20,000 nt of DNA, taken from the IMG/VR virus record IMGVR_UViG_3300047576_000059; one strand, written 5' to 3'. The notes beneath the pieces were generated by a model. The model was not told where the DNA came from and ran no database searches. It worked only from the letters and a program-made list of their open reading frames with translations. Positions 6,853 through 19,483 of the stretch are shown here, piece by piece. Position numbers and translations under genes: made by a program. Positions within the stretch are counted from its first letter, which is position 1. Every line of letters starts with the position of its first letter. This DNA comes from an uncultured virus (IMG/VR IMGVR_UViG_3300047576_000059). Lineage: Duplodnaviria; Heunggongvirae; Uroviricota; Caudoviricetes.

Positions 6853-9144
6853 TCAGTAGTTGTTGACAACTGATTTGCTGGCTCCGCTGCCACCATCGCT
6901 GATCGCGCCACTGCCATTGATGTTATTCAGGGTAATGACATAGCGGTTGCTCGCGCCGGTCGCCACCGTGACACTGCCGGTATTGAACCCCCAGACCTCC
7001 GAGGTTCCAAGAGCATTACCGATGATGCTGAAATCAGTGACGTTGGCGGATATCTGGATCGCCGAACCACTTGAACCATAAATCTGGTTCTCGGTGATGA
7101 TCGTGTTGACCCCGGCGTCGATCTGAATGCCATAGGGAACATTGGCGATCTGGCAACCACGAATGGTCGCGTCACCCGAGAAACCGGTGGTCAGATTGAT
7201 GCCATCGGATACCGCCTCGCAGGAATTCGCGTAGGTCAGGTTCTCGATCAACAGGCCAGCACCCGAAGTGGCTCTCAGACCAAATTCGAGATAACTGTCG
7301 CAATCGGAATCGGTGATGGTGTTCTTCTGGGGTCCGGTTCCGGCCAGTGTATTGGTCAGATAGATGCCGCCACGATAGGCACCCGACATGTCGCAATGAT
7401 GGAAATAGTTGACATTCGCGCCGGTATCGAGATTGACCGCCACCGTTCCGGTGCCGCAGGCGGTTTGCCAGGTCACGCCATTATCGATGATATTGGAACC
7501 AAACTGTAATGGTGTTGGCGCGGTGCTTCCCGAAGTGCCACCCGAGACGCATTGCAGATAATAGCCGCCCGTCGAGCAAACTTGATTCTGACTATAAGAA
7601 TGTGACGCGACCCAGGCTCCGGTCAGTTGTGAGGCGACGGGTGCGACATTGGTTGGCCAGACCTGATCGATCTTGACTCGCTCGAAGAAACATGCTCCGG
7701 CGTTCTGCACCACCACTGAAGCGGTGCCACTGGAGTTGTAGATTTTATCGCGGGTGAAACAATTATCCGCCGCGCCACCGTTCACCAACAGCGGAATGTA
7801 GCCACCCGTGATGTTGCAATCGGTGATTTTACTTTCGACGCATCCGTTGAATTGCACGGTTGGCATCGTGTTGATCGCGAGATGTGGATCATCGATCCAC
7901 ATGTTCTCAAAGGCGATGGCACCGCCAATGACTTCGAACATGCCGACGCCAGCCGTCAGCGCCTGAAGCAGAGTATTCTGCGTACTATGTCCGGCGAGCC
8001 GGAGGCCGGTGGTGTCGATGACCAGTTTTGTTCCGGTACGATAATATCCGGTTGGAAAAATCAGCGGGCTGATGCCAACTGCTGTGCAATAAGTTATCGC
8101 GTTCTGAAGCGCCGTGTAGTCATTCGTCGTACCGTCACCCTTGGCACCGAACCATTTCACAGATATTCCATCTTTGATACTAAAACGATACCAACTTCTG
8201 CTCGACGCGTCATTGAAGATCGTGCCACCATTATCGGTCGTGCTGCTGCCGATGAAGAGCAATCCTTCACCGCCATCCTGCGCGCCGTAATATCCTTCGA
8301 GGTACACGAGACCTTCTGGATTGGTGCTGCTGGTGATCGCGCGCAGCGCGGTGACATTGGCGACCACTCCGCGTCCCGCCAGGGCTTGCGCGATCTCCGT
8401 CGTGCTGGCCGCGATCACGGGTGTCATCGCCGAGGAAACCGCGACGCTGGGACCTGTTGGGCCGGTGGGTCCGACGACCGTGGAGGCCGCGCCAACGGCT
8501 CCCGTGGGTCCGACCGGTCCCGTGGGTCCCGTGGGTCCGATGACCGTGGAGGCCGCCCCCGTGGGTCCGGTGACCGATGGGCCAGTGGCACCTGTTGGTC
8601 CGGTTGGGCCTGGTACCGTTGAATTCGCGCCGGTCACGCCAATGGGGCCGCGTGATCCGGTCGGGCCTGTCCATCCCGTGGGTCCGGTGATGGTTGAAAC
8701 CGCTCCGGTGGGTCCAAGGGCTCCGGTTGGTCCCGTGGGTCCGGTGTAGCCCGTCGCTCCGGTCGATGAGGCGTTGCCTGGTAAACCCGTGGGTCCGGTT
8801 GGTCCCGTGGGTCCGGTATGACCCGTCGCCCCGGTCGATGAGGCGATGCCCGGTGCGCCCGCCGCCCCGGTTGGGCCGGTGGGTCCGACCACCGTGCCAT
8901 CCGACGAAATCGTGATGTTCCCGTTATTAAGATTGAACAGGATGCCGGGACCGTTGAGAATATTTCTCAGGGTCACGATGACACTGCCAGAATTTTGCGA
9001 CACCGAACTGAATAACTGGAGTCCGGTCGACGGCGTCTGGATCACGAAGCTCGAAAGCGTTTGCGAAATACCGCTCGCCTGCGTCGGTGACGTGGACGTG
9101 AACGTTACATTTCCGCTGAAATTCCCAGAACCAACCGTGGGCAT
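6853..9144 (-). CDS. tail fibre/tailspike: collagen-like stalk plus pectate-lyase-like beta-helix (putative depolymerase)
   Basis: GPT repeats; [23 protein letters not shown]...IFPTGYY beta-helix cap; G-x-x-I/N repeats; TAAATA upstream. Confidence 0.85.
8450..8890 (-). repeat. collagen-like (G-P-T)n coding repeat
   Basis: Repeated gtgggtccggt units encoding GPTGPTG. Confidence 0.85.
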
Positions 9145-9173: not shown

Positions 9174-9179
9174 TATTTA
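9174..9179 (-). promoter_or_regulatory. late promoter TAAATA with hairpin 9143-9174 covering the AUG
   Basis: Motif plus ATTGCTTA/TAAGCAAT inverted repeat. Confidence 0.7.
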
Positions 9180-9206
9180 GTTGGATCAGTGCAGTCGTCT
9201 TAAATC

Positions 9207-13485: not shown

Positions 13486-13958
13486 CGTTTGTATCCGAAC
13501 AACTGGTTCTCGGTGACAAATTTGAACTGCCATCCACGTTCGACGCAGTATTTCATACCAGCGGCGAACTTCGCGGCATTGACGATTTGTTTCGCTTGCT
13601 TCACGGATGACACCTTGCCGGTGAATCCACTCAACGCCACTGGCACTTCATCCAATGGCTTGACCTCGATGACCTCGACGTGTTGCTTGCCATGCCGGTC
13701 GATGTACTGCACCCAGAAATCCGGCACGTAGATCGTCCAACTGCCAGGTCTGAGAGGATTCTGATACGGGATGCCGCTAATGCCATTGTGGACATGATTG
13801 GTTGGCAACGATTCATTCATCCAGTGTAGCACGTCAGGACCTTGATCGAAACGCATCATCACCGACCATTCCCAGGAGGATCGGGCGATGATGTTGTTGA
13901 TGTTATTGCCAAGATATTTCTTGGGATTTCTTGGTGTGAAGATGCCTTTGTCAGCCAT
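13482..13958 (-). CDS. head completion nuclease (T4 gp4-like, TnsA-type PD-(D/E)xK)
   Basis: F.PRNPKKY.G...RSSWE...IPY.NP...YVPDF...IEVKP...KF.A...YC...GW.FKFVTE. Confidence 0.9.
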   Translation of the reverse strand: MADKGIFTPRNPKKYLGNNINNIIARSSWEWSVMMRFDQGPDVLHWMNESLPTNHVHNGISGIPYQNPLRPGSWTIYVPDFWVQYIDRHGKQHVEVIEVKPLDEVPVALSGFTGKVSSVKQAKQIVNAAKFAAGMKYCVERGWQFKFVTENQLFGYKR

Positions 13959-13963
13959 GACAC

Positions 13964-13969
13964 TATTTA
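13964..13969 (-). promoter_or_regulatory. late promoter TAAATA, 5 nt before ATG
   Basis: TAAATA-gtgtc-ATG. Confidence 0.7.
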
Positions 13970-13976
13970 GTGTTGG

Positions 13977-15386
13977 TCAGCACCAACTGTCATCGGCGGC
14001 GGGTGTTGGCGGATTGCTGGCCTGGCTCTGTTGCTGCGCCGAGAAACCGGAACTCGGTCCTGCCGCTGGTGCCGGGTCCCATGTTCCGTTGTCAACGCTG
14101 CCAGCGTTGAACCCGATCTGCGACGTTCCGGTTTGTTGCGAATTGAAGACACCCATGGCAGCCGGGGAAAGTGAGATACCAGCCGAGGTCGAAAACGCGC
14201 CTCCACCACCGATTGCGATGCCAGCGAGTGCCGCCTTGGTGACGCCCACGGAATTGCTGAAAGCACCCATAGCCCCAGCCGTCACGGCGGCTGTGGCTTG
14301 GAACGTCGCGCCACTGACACCGAGCCCCACGCCAATCCCGCCATAAACCCCGATACCGCCGCCAATGCCCGCCGAAACGCCGATGTTGAGGGAGGCGGAT
14401 AACGCTGGATTGCCAAGCGACATGTTCGACAGATTGAGTGAGGCTCCGGCGTAGCCGCCGATGGTCAGGGGTCCGAAGGAGAAACTGCCAAACGTGCCCA
14501 ACGCTCCCAGTGAGAGTGAACCACCAAAGCGGAAGCCATACGATCCCGAATAATTCGCCGCGTAAGCACCCGAGGAATACGAGGCCAGCAGTGATTGCAC
14601 CGAGGGATTGGCGGGCAGCAGGCTGGGGATCGTCGCGAACGGCGAAATCGGAACATATCCCCCAGGGACATTCACTGGATTGCCGTTGAACGCGTAGCTG
14701 AATTCCGGGAAGATCGCGGTGGAGACCAGTTGTTGAGGAAAATACTGGATGTTCTCATAGGCGATGGTGGTGTTGATCGTGGAAATCTCGGAATTCGAGT
14801 AGTCCAGATCGTCGGCCTCCCAACCGGAGATTCTTGGGTTGCCGAGATTGTATTGATCGAAATATCCATCGTAGAAGTGAAAAATTTCCAGCCGATTGAA
14901 AAAGAACATGGCGTCGGAATATTCACTGCCCCCGTTATTGGCGGTGAATCCGAAGCCCGTTCCGGCGAAATCCTTGAAATTCGCGTAGGTCGCGTCGTAT
15001 GAATAAGAGCGATTGCTGCCGGATGGACTGGACGAATTGTTGAAGTCGCCGAAGTAGTATCTAGAATAGATCGTCCACATGTTTTGCGCGCAACCATCCG
15101 CGCTGTCATAAAATTGAAGTTTCAGTGGTTCAATTTTGAAACCGGTATGGATTTGGCGTTTCTTGTTGTACTGGTTCAGTTCTTCGAGTTTCGGATTCAC
15201 GTGCGGACGATCCACCGACTTCACGGCGAAGGTCAGGTTCCCGGTGAACACCGAAGCCAGATAGGAACCAGGCACAAACCGCACGATGAATACATTGCGT
15301 TGCCTCGGAAAGCCGCCCTGTTGTGAAAAAGTAAGGGCGGCTTGCGTCGGCGTTTGTAATGTAGGACCAGAGTAAGACCCACTCAT
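13977..15386 (-). CDS. tail-tube-fold baseplate/tube initiator protein with Gly/Ser/Ala-rich C-terminal extension
   Basis: VKSVDRP...NQYNKKR...EPLKLQFYD...NPRI...DLDYS.....I.YE parallels the gp19 fold; ATGA-coupled to the tube gene. Confidence 0.7.
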   Translation of the reverse strand: MSGSYSGPTLQTPTQAALTFSQQGGFPRQRNVFIVRFVPGSYLASVFTGNLTFAVKSVDRPHVNPKLEELNQYNKKRQIHTGFKIEPLKLQFYDSADGCAQNMWTIYSRYYFGDFNNSSSPSGSNRSYSYDATYANFKDFAGTGFGFTANNGGSEYSDAMFFFNRLEIFHFYDGYFDQYNLGNPRISGWEADDLDYSNSEISTINTTIAYENIQYFPQQLVSTAIFPEFSYAFNGNPVNVPGGYVPISPFATIPSLLPANPSVQSLLASYSSGAYAANYSGSYGFRFGGSLSLGALGTFGSFSFGPLTIGGYAGASLNLSNMSLGNPALSASLNIGVSAGIGGGIGVYGGIGVGLGVSGATFQATAAVTAGAMGAFSNSVGVTKAALAGIAIGGGGAFSTSAGISLSPAAMGVFNSQQTGTSQIGFNAGSVDNGTWDPAPAAGPSSGFSAQQQSQASNPPTPAADDSWC

Positions 15387-15959
15387 CCAATGAACGAACT
15401 TGACAGCAAGATTGGTATCGTTGGCATGAGACCACCAGACTGCGTGGCGTTGTCGAACCGAATCGACATTTCGATGGTCATCGCGTCAGCGGTTGAATAG
15501 TCGAATGTCTCATAATTGCACTCGGCCAGGAAGCAACCTTCGAATACCCATTGCTCAAGAATGGTGTCATCGCCGCCATCGAGCGTATTGATCAGCATGC
15601 CGAATTTATAATCAGCGGCGGAAGCCGGAACCGTCTGATCGAAGAAATTCATCTGCTTCTGAAGCTGAGCGCCAACCAATGACGACACGGAATTCGTGAT
15701 GTCATCACGGACGGTGAGCGAGAGCGCCTGCCATTCCGCCTTACCAGCGTAGTAAGCGATGCTGTTGTATGAATGAACCGTGACCGGATTGAAGTTGACG
15801 TTCGGGCGACCAACCGTGGTGACCTGTTGCGTCAACGCGATGGAACCCGAAGGAATGCCAAAATTGGTCACAACGACGTTGAAACGATTTTTGACCTTGG
15901 GCATGAGCATTCCACCCCTCCCACCCGGTCCCGGTACCAAAGGTACACCAAAATTTTGC
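15383..15959 (-). CDS. tail tube protein (T4 gp19-like), exon 2
   Basis: NFGVP...MLMPKVKNRF...QVTTVGRP...YNS..YYAGK..W...TVRDD...YKF...LDG...LEQW...GCFL...YS....I.M.IRFDNA. The open frame extends upstream of TTG15940 to the intron boundary. Confidence 0.9.
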
Positions 15960-16101
15960 CCTTTATTTTCAATAGAGGTCGTTAGACTCTATCCGCTTTC
16001 GCTGCTATACATTACTGTATAGAGAAGACTATATCACCATCCTTTAGTAAGGACGCTACCCGCTTCGACCCACTTGGGTCTACTCCCTTTCGGGATAGTC
16101 G

Positions 16102-16130
16102 TTGAACCTTGATTAAAGTTTTGATATATT
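16102..16130 (+). promoter_or_regulatory. sigma70-like promoter for the intron endonuclease
   Basis: TTGAAC-N17-TATATT with extended TGn; ATG follows 7 nt later with no SD. Confidence 0.55.
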
Positions 16131-16137
16131 CAAGTAA

Positions 16138-16587
16138 ATGGAACACGAAATATTTCTAGCATACGTGGCTGGCATTATGGACGGTGAGGGTTGTTTTAGG
16201 ATTGAGAAAAAACGTCCTAATGCCGCTCAAAAGTCCATCAAGTACACGATGATGATTACCCTTCAGATGGGAGAGAAGGCAGTGATGGATCACATCGCCT
16301 CTCATCTTGAGATTACCCCTCTGTTCATAAATCTACAACAGTGGAAATACAAAGATAATCAACCTCGTCGTCCAGCTTATCGGATTCAGCTTTTTTCAAA
16401 GCGTGCTGCCGATTTTATCCGCCTGATACTTCCTTATCTTGTCGGCAAGAAAGAGCAGGCGAGGTTATGCCTTGAATTCAACGATCTCATAAGCAGCCAA
16501 GTAAAACTCAAACGAAAATTCACGGAAAGTGAACTTGCTATTCGAGATGACTATTATGAGCGTGTTACATTACTTAAGCATATCTAA
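16138..16587 (+). CDS. LAGLIDADG homing endonuclease (single motif), antisense within the intron P6 region
   Basis: LAYVAGIMDGEGCF motif; ILPYLVGKKEQA C-terminal motif. Confidence 0.92.
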   Translation: MEHEIFLAYVAGIMDGEGCFRIEKKRPNAAQKSIKYTMMITLQMGEKAVMDHIASHLEITPLFINLQQWKYKDNQPRRPAYRIQLFSKRAADFIRLILPYLVGKKEQARLCLEFNDLISSQVKLKRKFTESELAIRDDYYERVTLLKHI

Positions 16588-16679
16588 TTTTAACCCTTGG
16601 CTGCTGATTGTCCTTTTCGAGGAGTTTCCAGCAATTCGAGTAGTTCTCAATAATCATTGCTGATTATTGCCCCAAATTT

Positions 16680-16690
16680 AGGGTTGTTAT
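16680..16690 (-). CDS. tail tube protein, exon 1 (ATA ACA ACC CT)
   Basis: TAAGGAG 8 nt upstream; splicing gives (M)TTLQNFGVP, 195 aa in total. Confidence 0.65.
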
Positions 16691-16738
16691 GGCACATACT
16701 CCTTAAAAAAATGTTTCGAGAGCCATTCTCGTTGCAGA

Positions 16739-16744
16739 TATTTA
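16739..16744 (-). promoter_or_regulatory. late promoter TAAATA for the tail tube operon
   Basis: Motif ~35 nt upstream of the TAAGGAG RBS. Confidence 0.7.
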
Positions 16745-16769
16745 GCTAAAAGAGTAATATACGCAGTTA

Positions 16770-17477
16770 ATGAACAATAGCTATTATGTTTACAACCTGC
16801 TGGACCCACGCTACGAACACCATCCGCCCTTTTACACCGGAAAAGGCAGCGGGAATCGGGCAAACATGCACATGCACGAATCAAAGCGAAGACATGAGAA
16901 TCCACGCAAGTATGCCAAAATTCAAAAGATTAGGGCTGCTGGTCTTGAGCCTATCATTGAATATTACGCTACTGATTTGTCAGAGGAAGATGCATACAAA
17001 TTGGAAGCCGAACTAATCATAAAATTTGGAAGAGCGGGGATTGATGAGGGAGGCATCCTTACAAATCTACTCTTGGATGGTCGCCCTCCCCTTAGGTCAG
17101 GTCCGATGTCAGATGAACAGAAAGAGGCGATCAGAAAAGGAAATTCCGGCAAGATACGCACATTAGAACAGTGTGCAGAACTTTCACGGAATAGAAAAGG
17201 AAGGCCCCGTGCGTCTCCGACCGAAGAAACCAAGGAACTCATACGTCTGGGAAACATCGCCGCCAAGGTTGACATCAGGCTATCGGATGATTTGACAGGG
17301 AGGACATTTGGCTCCTACACTGTGGCAGAAAAAAGTCGAGATGAGCGTCCCAGGATACGTGGTGCCAACGGCATATACTGGAAGTGCCTATGTTCATCAT
17401 GCGATAAGGAAAAAGAAGTTCAGCAATCACAATTGATGAAGGGAACATTCAGGATTTGTTGTCCAACCGCATCCTAA
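16770..17477 (+). CDS. free-standing GIY-YIG homing endonuclease with NUMOD3-like repeats and C-terminal Zn module
   Basis: YYVY.L.DP...PFYTGKG...R..H...E..LI...LTN; MSDEQKEAI and TEETKELI repeats; DLTGRTFG..V...WKCLC..C. Confidence 0.85.
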   Translation: MNNSYYVYNLLDPRYEHHPPFYTGKGSGNRANMHMHESKRRHENPRKYAKIQKIRAAGLEPIIEYYATDLSEEDAYKLEAELIIKFGRAGIDEGGILTNLLLDGRPPLRSGPMSDEQKEAIRKGNSGKIRTLEQCAELSRNRKGRPRASPTEETKELIRLGNIAAKVDIRLSDDLTGRTFGSYTVAEKSRDERPRIRGANGIYWKCLCSSCDKEKEVQQSQLMKGTFRICCPTAS

Positions 17478-17491
17478 CAAAGGAACTTAAC

Positions 17492-17824
17492 ATGAAACCT
17501 GTTATCAAAATACCAGCCGATGTCAGGAATGACTCTGGGCTGTCGCCGCCGGAAATCGAAGAAATGTTCAATAGCCATGATATGATCGAATTGTCATATG
17601 GCGACATCGTGATGATGACGCATAAGAGCGCACTCGCAGACGCTTTAGAATCCGTCAGCAAATACGATGCGGGCCAACTCGCACGCATCAAAGAGTCGGT
17701 GGACATCGCGCTGCGCGCAAATTTAACGAAATTGGCCAACCCTGACACCCTTGTGAAATCGGACGCGGACGACTTCTTCGGTGACTTGCTGTTGTGGGAG
17801 GCGTTGAAAGGGATGTCGTCCTGA
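17492..17824 (+). CDS. hypothetical protein
   Basis: AAGGA RBS before ATG17492. Confidence 0.65.
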   Translation: MKPVIKIPADVRNDSGLSPPEIEEMFNSHDMIELSYGDIVMMTHKSALADALESVSKYDAGQLARIKESVDIALRANLTKLANPDTLVKSDADDFFGDLLLWEALKGMSS

Positions 17825-17832
17825 GGTGGAAC

Positions 17833-19111
17833 TCACAAATCCCTGCCTCGTTTATCGACCCATCCTATGGTGGTGAAACCGATCAGATCGGATGAGTTGA
17901 CGGTTCTGAAACGCGCCTGCGCGGAGGTGTTCGTGAACACGCGAAGCACATCGGAAGAATTGATCGCTGGTGATCCAATGAGACTGAACGCGCTGACGCT
18001 GGGAACGGAATCGCCCACGGCGATAGGCGAGACATACAGGATTGGCACCTCACTACTGGAGTTTTGCAGCAGCACACTGAGAATGGCCTCGGTAACGACA
18101 TTGACCGGCGTGCTCGTCGAGAAAATTTGCGCGCTGGTCGATCCGGATGTCGTTCCAGGTGTTACGTCAACGATTGGAACATTCCAGATGAAGGTGTCAC
18201 CACTTTGATAGAACGCGAGGATTGATCCCGAACCACCCGTGGCGAATGAGCCGATGCGTCGAAACGCCGTGGTGCCAGAGGGTTTGTTGGCCGCTGTCAC
18301 CGATGTATCGAAGAAGATGTCCGCTGAACTGCTGATGATCGCGGCGAACACATGATACCATGTGCTGTCGGCAATCGCCAGGCCATTGCCCATGCCATCG
18401 TTGCCTGATCCGGCCACCCATCCGCCCGCCGTGGATTTGAACATCGCCGGAATGGTCATCATCACGCTGTTGGTGCTGTCCATGCACTGGCCAGCCGCCA
18501 CGTCGATGATGCTGGTCGGCGTGCCGACATCGTTGGACAGGGTCAGACCCGCCAGATAGCTGCGCAGGATCGTCGGACCTGTCGGCCCGGTTGGTCCGGT
18601 CACCGTTGAAGCAGCGCCTGCCGGACCCGTGGGACCGGTCACGGACGCGCCAGTGGGTCCGGTCACCGTTGAGGCGGCTCCGGTCGGCCCAGTGGGGACC
18701 GGCTGGCCCGGTTGGACCCACCGTCGCGCCGCTGGCGATCTTGTTCCAGACGGTGCCGCTGTAGATCGCGATGTCGCCGACGTTCCAGGCGAAAATGCCG
18801 TTGAGGTTGGTTGTGCCCTCGACCGAGGTCACATAGTAATTGCCCTTCGTTCCGGTACTGGACGCGAGGGTTGGTGTGTTGGTGCTGGCGTTCCATGGTC
18901 CTTGATAAACGATGCCGCCGAGCAACGAGGTCGGCACCAATGGAGTCCAGGTGCCGTTTGTGTAGATATCAAGACTTTCGTTGATGCTGTTGAACCTGAT
19001 GGCACCTTGCGATGGGGAAGGCGACAGGTAGGTTGATACCGGCAGGGACAAGGAACCCCCGAGCAGAACCAGTTCCCCTCCAGAATTTCTCGTGTCGATT
19101 ACTTTTGTCAT
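17833..19111 (-). CDS. collagen-like tail fibre protein interrupted by a +1 frameshift at ~18694-18697
   Basis: N-terminal ORF (GAIRFN...YQGPWNASTNTP..) enters GPT repeats; the repeat continues in another frame into the 17833-18666 ORF (WYHVF...FRRIGSF). Removing one C restores a 425-aa ORF. Confidence 0.75.
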
Positions 19112-19406: not shown

Positions 19407-19412
19407 TATTTA
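19407..19412 (-). promoter_or_regulatory. late promoter TAAATA
   Basis: TAAATA-tggtct-AGGAG-aaaccg-ATG. Confidence 0.65.
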
Positions 19413-19483
19413 GCAATGGATGATCAAGGAGGATCGACAATTGGTTGGTGTCGGTGACGGCCTGTTGGTAGCTCTTGAGGAAT

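Follow-up and report, generated by a model that had tools for sequence, protein, structure and literature searches.

How does a phage make an abundant virion protein when the gene that encodes it is interrupted within its fourth codon? This question is raised by a 20,000-nt stretch of DNA from an uncultured member of the Caudoviricetes (IMG/VR record IMGVR_UViG_3300047576_000059; the whole stretch is hereafter called the window, and unprefixed coordinates refer to it), where the first codons of a tail tube gene on the minus strand lie 720 nt away from the remainder of the gene. An original prediction, made from the letters of the window, held that the intervening segment is a group I intron. 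Based on sequence comparison, we find it highly probable that positions 16679-15960 of the minus strand are a real, mobile, self-splicing group I intron in a tail tube gene of the T4 gp19 type. The P6 loop of this intron holds a predicted LAGLIDADG homing-endonuclease gene on the opposite strand, and the codon in the start position of the tube gene is ATA. Neither feature was part of the original prediction, from which a possible start inside exon 2, a neighboring GIY-YIG endonuclease gene, and previously published tail tube introns were likewise absent.

A probable group I intron with a conserved core

A cmscan search of the whole window against Rfam returned a single match above the gathering score, to the group I intron family RF00028 (16005-16689, minus strand; 51.6 versus 50 bits, E 1e-10), in agreement with the original assignment. 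The score is low because, in the cmscan alignment, a 471-nt insert in the P6 loop was forced into J6/7 and the R element was placed wrongly. The core elements, among them the true R element, were located by script, and every coordinate that the original prediction had proposed for them on the minus strand was matched (Table 1). Searching the virus record that holds the window with RF00028 returned the two halves of the 16679-15960 intron and nothing else. In a blastn comparison with phage genomes, the match was confined to the 3' core (~15951-16115), and the subjects were introns of Lak, PhiPA3, SPbeta-like, and other phages. Subgroup IA2 is defined by the extra helices P7.1 and P7.2 between P7 and P3'. 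The predicted structure is of the phage IA2-like subtype, as judged from P7.1/P7.2 between R and P3'.

Two further introns enabled us to assess covariation: an intron of 259 nt that lacks an open reading frame (ORF) in the tube gene of a relative (L021:183-441; RF00028, 94.2 bits) and one from a viral contig (L041; 97.1 bits). With its loop insert cut out by script, the window intron is 78.5% identical to the former and 68% identical to the latter. RNAalifold derived a consensus of 70 pairs from these three sequences, with 38 invariant, 7 changed on one side, 20 changed on both sides, and 8 containing a non-pair in at least one sequence; a sample of three lends these counts modest statistical power. 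Two-sided changes sit in P1, P2, P3, P7.1, P8, P9, P9.2, and a two-pair outer helix of flank columns. Covariation is strongest in P7.1 (three of four pairs changed on both sides), P9, and P9.2, and P7.2 is invariant. The predicted fold is that of a textbook group I intron, and the covariation follows the pattern expected of a real ribozyme.

The host gene encodes a predicted contractile-tail tube protein

The ORF that follows the intron (15383-15940) matches phrog_4542, annotated as tail tube protein, with an E value of 2.3e-48. This alignment enters the profile at position 10 with residue 2 of the ORF, indicating that ~9 residues are missing upstream; the proposal that the ORF caller had truncated the N terminus thus holds. 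Homologs of the tube number 455 at E <= 1e-3. An AlphaFold model built from 22 sequences reached moderate confidence (pLDDT 66.8), and a Foldseek search with it identified the T4 tail tube (5w5f_A; E 2.2e-8, TM 0.55/0.62), together with tubes of AFP, PVC, pyocin, and other contractile systems. A PDB sequence search, Pfam, and NCBIfam gave no match to the tube protein. On the combined strength of the profile and the modeled structure, the host gene is a predicted T4 gp19-like contractile-tail tube gene, as the original prediction had named it.

The tube gene is followed by a gene for a tube-like paralog and then by one for a head-closure protein. The paralog, a second protein of the tube family (469 aa; 13977-15386, minus strand), lies directly after the tube gene and matches phrog_13438 and phrog_4542; its C-terminal half is long and rich in Gly, Ser, and Ala. 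The tube and tube-like pair occurs in 11 of 12 relatives' loci, 10 of which also have the head-closure gene, with the L020 locus ending before the head-closure slot and before a full tube-like match. The virus record holding the window (G001) measures 66.5 kb and is rated 14% complete, and contigs bearing homologs reach 638 kb, so the phage is probably very large.

Joining the exons would rebuild the conserved N terminus

The 5' splice site falls 11 nt past the start position, and the intron separates the second and third bases of codon 4 (Leu); the insertion thus lies within the fourth codon, where it had been placed originally. Exon 2 opens with G CAA AAT TTT GGT, and joining 16680 to 15959 reads T-T-L-Q-N-F-G-V-P-L in frame. 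When the joined product was compared with intronless tube homologs, the full-length examples of which begin M-(T/S)-T-L-Q-N-F-G-V-P-L-G-G-G, the join regained the shared N terminus and rebuilt the conserved first 20 residues of the protein, as the original prediction had anticipated. Exon 1 itself matches the ATG-ACx-ACx-CTx/TTA opening of intronless relatives.

We assembled 27 relatives' loci that include the 5' region of the gene (14 viral and 13 metagenomic, several being the same contig from two collections). Reading is uninterrupted at the insertion site in 24 of them; the remainder are L021, with its intron, L019, where the contig ends, and L023, which has unrelated GC-rich DNA upstream. 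Intron absence in the viral loci L003-L018 was judged by uninterrupted reading frames rather than by model scan, and an RF00028 E-value scan of 10 metagenome loci found one intron, that of L021. The relatives' proteins have starts of the M/V/L/I-x-T-L-Q-N-F-G-V-P type, with three distant ones reading MTVASLTKF or MSVSSLTRF. Among the 120 matches listed, homologs are mostly 186-213 aa long, a range that includes the 195 codons of the spliced window gene.

Three consecutive Gs (15961-15959) leave the 3' splice site ambiguous from the window alone. The L021 intron ends identically (...GAAAATAAAGG), and in that relative the junction is in frame with the second G alone; we therefore take G15960 as the terminal G, the position originally given for omega-G. 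A terminal G at 15959 combined with an ATG at 16697 would also be in frame. This arrangement was rejected, as the 3' end aligns with that of L021 and the spacer between AAGGAG and this ATG is only 1 nt. Read without splicing from ATA 16690, the frame stops after 8 codons (TAA 16666-16664), consistent with the earlier claim that unspliced mRNA stops within the intron.

An ATA in the start position and signals in the leader

The codon in the start position is ATA (16690-16688), preceded by an AAGGAG Shine-Dalgarno (SD) sequence. Equal spacing, 8 nt from AAGGAG, is found before the TTG start of L013. Starts of other relatives include GTG (L009), TTG (L013, L014, and L028), and ATT (L034:1580-1582), and in L034 the interval from the upstream stop to the conserved S-T-I-S-N-F codons contains neither ATG nor GTG nor TTG. 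The ATA of the window is not an assembly slip, because a 909-nt DNA contig from another run (X4) covers 16142-17050 with 0 differences.

The heptamer CTAAATA, which may be akin to T4 late promoters, occurs in four copies in the window, all on the minus strand, versus 0.48 expected; none of 200 shuffles reached four. Two copies closely precede genes, one (9174-9180) an ORF starting at 9144 and the other (16739-16745) the tube gene. A third (13964-13970) stands only 5 nt before an ORF start at 13958, and for the fourth (19407-19413) the next ORF start downstream is 296 nt away. Tube genes in relatives, too, have this or a similar motif upstream. With a copy 49 nt before the tube start, exon 1 therefore has a promoter-like signal of its own.

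An antisense LAGLIDADG gene in the P6 loop

Of the 471 nt in the P6 loop, 450 belong to an ORF that runs antisense to the intron and encodes a predicted single-motif LAGLIDADG homing endonuclease. This ORF is the intron's only long one; the longest sense-strand ORF overlapping the P6 loop is 49 aa. Its product matches Pfam PF00961 (26.9 bits, cutoff 23.1) and phrog_5046 (E 2e-22), and a phmmer search of the PDB returned chains of the I-CreI/I-MsoI type (E 6e-6 to 1e-3, residues 5-129). In the alignment with an I-CreI-derived chain, VAGIMDGEG pairs with LAGFVDGDG and keeps the acidic residue of the motif. From these matches, the ORF looks like one encoding an apparently intact single-motif I-CreI-like enzyme. 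Single-motif LAGLIDADG enzymes act as homodimers. Relatives are scarce, with five matches in a large protein database (including the window's own) and one distant viral locus, L062; a homolog, P0122, is 69% identical to the window protein.

Since the endonuclease gene lies on the opposite strand, it needs a plus-strand transcript of its own. Just upstream lies a sigma-70-like promoter match, whose -35 hexamer is, in reverse complement, a piece of the intron R element. Seven such sites occur in 2.2 kb versus 3.0 +/- 1.6 expected, about twice the frequency in shuffles, and the promoter is therefore a lead, not a finding. We also considered the palindrome CAAAATTTTG, 1-11 nt into exon 2, as a pointer to the endonuclease target; it was rejected, as the palindrome is intact in the intron-bearing allele.

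Inspection for motifs turned up three other loci (L042, L058, and L061) in which R and S elements resembling those of a group I core accompany a sense-strand ORF. If these are introns, their ORFs would have the usual sense orientation. An RF00028 scan of L042 and L045-L061 gave no match, which we attribute to the low sensitivity of the model with large inserts. In the viral contig L042 (~1170-1620, intron orientation), a tape-measure-like gene apparently contains two tandem group I core-like stretches, one with a sense-strand HNH-type ORF. L045-L048 and most of 13 genome-contig motif matches were rejected as chance word matches.

RNA from the intron and competing explanations

The same sequence recurs in 20 public runs with 20 study codes, dated 2017-2025, three of which are marked as possible sources of the window. 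These 20, out of 22 runs listed, carry at least part of 15300-17000, and eight are RNA libraries. Contigs from three RNA runs (three studies) and one DNA run were compared with the window. Three RNA contigs cover parts of the intron (15965-16641, 16098-16663, and 16196-16667), with 0 differences and no loose ends, and all lie within 15960-16679. The DNA contig continues across 16680, and exon 2 is covered by separate contigs. The three RNA contigs are a weak hint that intron-sized RNA exists. RNA cover is absent from 15901-15964 and from 16668-17558, a span that takes in the GIY-YIG gene described below; such absence proves nothing. Run X6 also contains an RNA contig from a related intron (touching 16080-16111 and 16595-16614), which has a 29-nt hairpin exactly at the position of the 471-nt insert.

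Several observations weigh against an intron that is spliced to yield the tube. The margin of the RF00028 match over its threshold is just 1.6 bits, P1 is short (three G-C pairs, one U-G, and one or two A-U), and a P10 can be drawn only from 3 nt inside exon 2 (AAAUUU with AAAUUU). ATA is a poor initiator in model bacteria, and an out-of-frame ATG at 16697 lies only 1 nt from AAGGAG. Within exon 2, an SD-like GGAGG stands 6 nt before ATG 15910, making a tube shorter by 20 residues possible without splicing. No contig joins 16680 to 15959 in the three RNA runs, where missing cover is again no proof. The contigs are strandless, so the RNA internal to the intron could be plus-strand endonuclease mRNA, and RNA libraries may contain DNA. 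For these last three reasons, splicing is something that we infer rather than observe.

One unlikely, although serious, alternative concerns the RNA itself, which would be uninformative on splicing if it were plus-strand LAGLIDADG mRNA or antisense read-through instead of excised intron. Strandless contigs would accommodate this, and both the ORF and the promoter-like site are on the plus strand. However, the X6 contig reaches 15965, a point 5 nt from the terminal G and, relative to the plus-strand promoter-like site, 137 nt upstream; at the 5' splice site, each of the three contigs stops 12-38 nt within the intron.

We judge it improbable that the intron is real but that the tube is made from ATG 15910 (or 15904) by way of the GGAGG-like sequence at 15921-15917, leaving ATA dead and the intron effectively in a 5' leader. 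Beyond the placement of GGAGG and an ATA that is not a standard start codon, this explanation draws on homolog lengths: 12 of the 120 homologs listed are 173-174 aa, and 6 of 6 inspected begin MPK(V/I)KNRF. Such calls may come merely from gene callers that halt at an intron. No other N-terminal block in the family is conserved as well as the 20 residues at stake (alignment A1 puts L, Q, F, and G of LQNFG at 90% conservation or more), and the window retains them undamaged and in the reading frame. Moreover, GGAGG corresponds to conserved G-R-G-G codons and is present also in intronless relatives that clearly start upstream, and more distant relatives have Q in place of the Met in question. Dependence of tube production on splicing, with the internal start as its rival, is thus likely on the comparison of these sequences.

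Very improbable is a decayed, non-splicing ribozyme relic in a tube gene that is a pseudogene or is rescued by the tube-like paralog: the marginal Rfam score, the mutated start codon, and a second tube-family gene directly downstream would fit, yet the core helices are all intact and covary with two high-scoring relatives, the loop insert accounts for the low score, the sequence recurs across the public runs enumerated above, and retention of the tube and tube-like pair in relatives indicates that the paralog is no substitute.

Sister introns and a recurrent landing site at the 5' end of the tube gene

The intron of L021 interrupts codon 11 after its first base, 20 nt further downstream than the window insertion. 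Its guide sequence differs from that of the window intron, and its 3' half is near-identical.

Divergent from the tube gene is a free-standing gene for a GIY-YIG homing endonuclease, whose product matches PF22945 (28.7 bits versus 27) and phrog_314 (homing endonuclease). The homolog in L013 also carries NUMOD3, a domain that is below Pfam listing in the window protein. In 3 of 12 relatives' loci (L013, L020, and, as a fragment, L008), a GIY-YIG homolog fills this divergent slot, and other relatives have unrelated genes there (NYN, ART-PolyVal, or a NUMOD3 protein). A 122-aa ORF that overlaps the end of the GIY-YIG ORF has no match in Pfam, PHROGs, or NCBIfam.

In two relatives, vestigial copies of the first codons of the tube gene lie between the promoter-like motif and the working start (L020:3375-3460 and L021:110-165). 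Recurrent insertions and vestigial gene starts at the tube 5' end are the pattern expected from repeated endonuclease cuts. As judged from these loci, the first 31 coding bases of the tube gene, together with the upstream slot, are a recurrent landing and recombination site for selfish elements in this lineage.

L020 has, in addition, a mini-ORF of 6 codons that ends by overlapping the real start in an ATGA, an arrangement suggestive of coupled translation. In L023:1-770, the first codons of the tube gene are replaced by unrelated GC-rich sequence, from either a chimeric contig or a rearrangement. Elsewhere in the window (17833-19111, minus strand), a collagen-like tail-fiber gene with G-P-T repeats is split into two overlapping ORFs, with the break near 18686-18700. 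The split is a one-base frame change at a CCCC run, for which misassembly, a genuine frameshift, and slippage are possible sources.

Table 1. Positions of the intron, its structural elements, the tube gene, and associated genes and signals in the window
Feature	Position	Strand	Basis or remark
Intron, 720 nt, IA2-like, P1-P9.2 including P7.1/P7.2	16679-15960	minus	RF00028 and script-located elements
P1	16683-16679 with 16674-16670	minus	U16680 paired to G16673
P2	16669-16648	minus	GCAA loop
P3	16643-16637 with 16062-16056	minus	script
P4 (P and Q elements)	16634-16628 with 16607-16601	minus	script
P5	16624-16620 with 16614-16610	minus	script
P6	16595-16589 with 16117-16111	minus	script
P6 loop, 471 nt	16588-16118	minus	holds antisense ORF
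R/P7, true R element GGTTCAACGACTA	16108-16096	minus	script
P7.1 (UCCC-GAAA-GGGA)	~16095-16084	minus	script
P7.2	16079-16068	minus	script
P8	16054-16039	minus	script
S/P7'	16035-16027	minus	script
P9	16022-16005	minus	script
P9.2	15993-15971	minus	script
Terminal G	15960	minus	script and L021 comparison
Exon 1, coding part, ATA ACA ACC CT (start position, Thr, Thr, two Leu bases)	16680-16690	minus	final U pairs with G in P1
Exon 2 of tail tube gene	15383-15959	minus	spliced product 195 codons
Shine-Dalgarno AAGGAG, 8 nt before ATA 16690	16699-16704	minus	read from sequence
Hairpin then T-run, presumed 5' untranslated region	16717-16731	minus	terminator-like scan
CTAAATA, candidate late-type promoter, 49 nt upstream of start position	16739-16745	minus	motif count
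Possible splicing-independent start, GGGAGGGG (15922-15915) then ATG 15910, ATG 15904	15902-15922	minus	read from sequence
Single-motif LAGLIDADG homing-endonuclease ORF, 149 aa	16138-16587	plus	PF00961, phrog_5046, phmmer/PDB
Sigma-70-like promoter match (TTGAAC, 17 nt, TG-n-TATATT)	16102-16130	plus	consensus scan; ends 7 nt before ATG 16138
Free-standing GIY-YIG homing-endonuclease gene, divergent, 79 nt from tube start position	16770-17477	plus	PF22945, phrog_314
122-aa ORF overlapping GIY-YIG ORF end	17456-17824	plus	third of three plus-strand ORFs among minus-strand structural genes

Discussion

We propose that the interrupted gene yields its product through RNA splicing. The tube gene would be transcribed late, from the CTAAATA-type promoter ~50 nt upstream, and in the pre-mRNA a P1 with its U-G pair at 16680 would form along with the full P3-P9 core. 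Self-splicing would then proceed by the usual guanosine-initiated, two-step transesterification. Excision of 16679-15960 would join exon 1 to G15959 and restore the N terminus of the tube, the translation of which would initiate at ATA 16690 behind an ideally spaced AAGGAG. Mobility would be provided by the I-CreI-like, presumably homodimeric LAGLIDADG endonuclease encoded in the P6 loop on the opposite strand, with the sigma-70-like promoter just upstream of its ATG as a possible source of the plus-strand transcript. That splicing gates tail assembly is speculation.

A more elaborate account, to which we give little credence, would combine these features. In it, the endonuclease mRNA is antisense and possibly leaderless, with a -35 element that is the reverse complement of R, and together with the GIY-YIG gene it forms a plus-strand selfish unit opposing the late structural operon. 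With the 5' splice site 11 nt past the start, ribosome initiation and P1 formation would be mutually exclusive; the weak ATA (ATT in L034) would be tuned so that the ribozyme folds first, and tube output would be set by splicing and antisense transcription.

The proposed intron can be placed among known systems. The td intron of T4, with I-TevI, has an IA2-type core with P7.1/P7.2 and a sense-strand GIY-YIG ORF looped out from P6, in a host gene for nucleotide metabolism. The window intron has in common with it the IA2-type core, P7.1/P7.2, and an endonuclease ORF in P6, but differs in that the endonuclease is an antisense LAGLIDADG and the host a late structural gene. Introns are reported to be frequent in large gut phages, with metatranscriptome support.

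Tail tube genes have hosted group I introns before. According to passages of one report, orf142 of the Staphylococcus phage Twort, later recognized as the tail tube, holds one or more group I introns (PMC11878797), and the likeness to the window is that of self-splicing group I introns in a myovirus-type tail tube gene. The window differs in having a single intron 11 nt past the start position and an antisense LAGLIDADG gene in P6, in a large environmental phage. A prophage of Bacillus weihenstephanensis KBAB4 as well as of B. cereus B4264 likewise has a tail tube group I intron, in which early stops end translation in P1/P2 (PMC2504315, in the passages concerned). It shares with the window the tail tube host and the early intron stop codons; the phage lineage and insertion site are different, and no antisense endonuclease gene appears in those passages. 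Given these published cases, a tail tube intron is not new in kind. Four features go further than the known pattern: a LAGLIDADG gene in antisense orientation, an intron placed only 11 nt past the start, ATA in the start position, and a sister intron at a second site of the same gene.

Antisense homing-endonuclease genes are described, in passages of two papers, for nuclear rDNA group I introns such as that encoding I-DirII of Didymium iridis (PMC3073962, PMC9548176). Such genes resemble that of the window in lying opposite to the intron strand and needing a promoter of their own. Those genes, as presented there, belong to the eukaryotic His-Cys box type and have Pol II promoters and spliceosomal introns, in contrast to a LAGLIDADG gene in a phage. 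In the open-access literature, including the passages seen of PMC3984707, PMC11878797, PMC2504315, PMC2988022, and PMC11835236, we found no phage or bacterial group I intron with an endonuclease gene in antisense orientation. In collaborative, or trans, homing, as outlined in part of PMC3984707, a free-standing endonuclease works with an intron. The window is similar in that a free-standing endonuclease gene adjoins the intron-bearing gene, with GIY-YIG homologs in the same slot of intronless relatives. It is dissimilar in that the intron also has its own endonuclease gene, and adjacency and recurrence are what is observed here.

These findings bear on how such genes are annotated and expressed. 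ORF callers truncate intron-split tube genes, giving calls of 173 aa versus ~194 aa. ATA and ATT starts in the gene for an abundant virion protein suggest that translation initiation in these phages merits checking. The locus offers a clear case of a predicted ribozyme that interrupts the gene for a major virion component, in an environmental phage of probably very large size. Its intron would have an antisense endonuclease gene of a sort that, in the open-access literature, we otherwise found described only for eukaryotic nuclear rDNA introns. Finally, sister introns 20 nt apart, a recurring GIY-YIG gene, and vestigial gene starts may together form a natural series for the gain and exchange of target sites by introns and their endonucleases.

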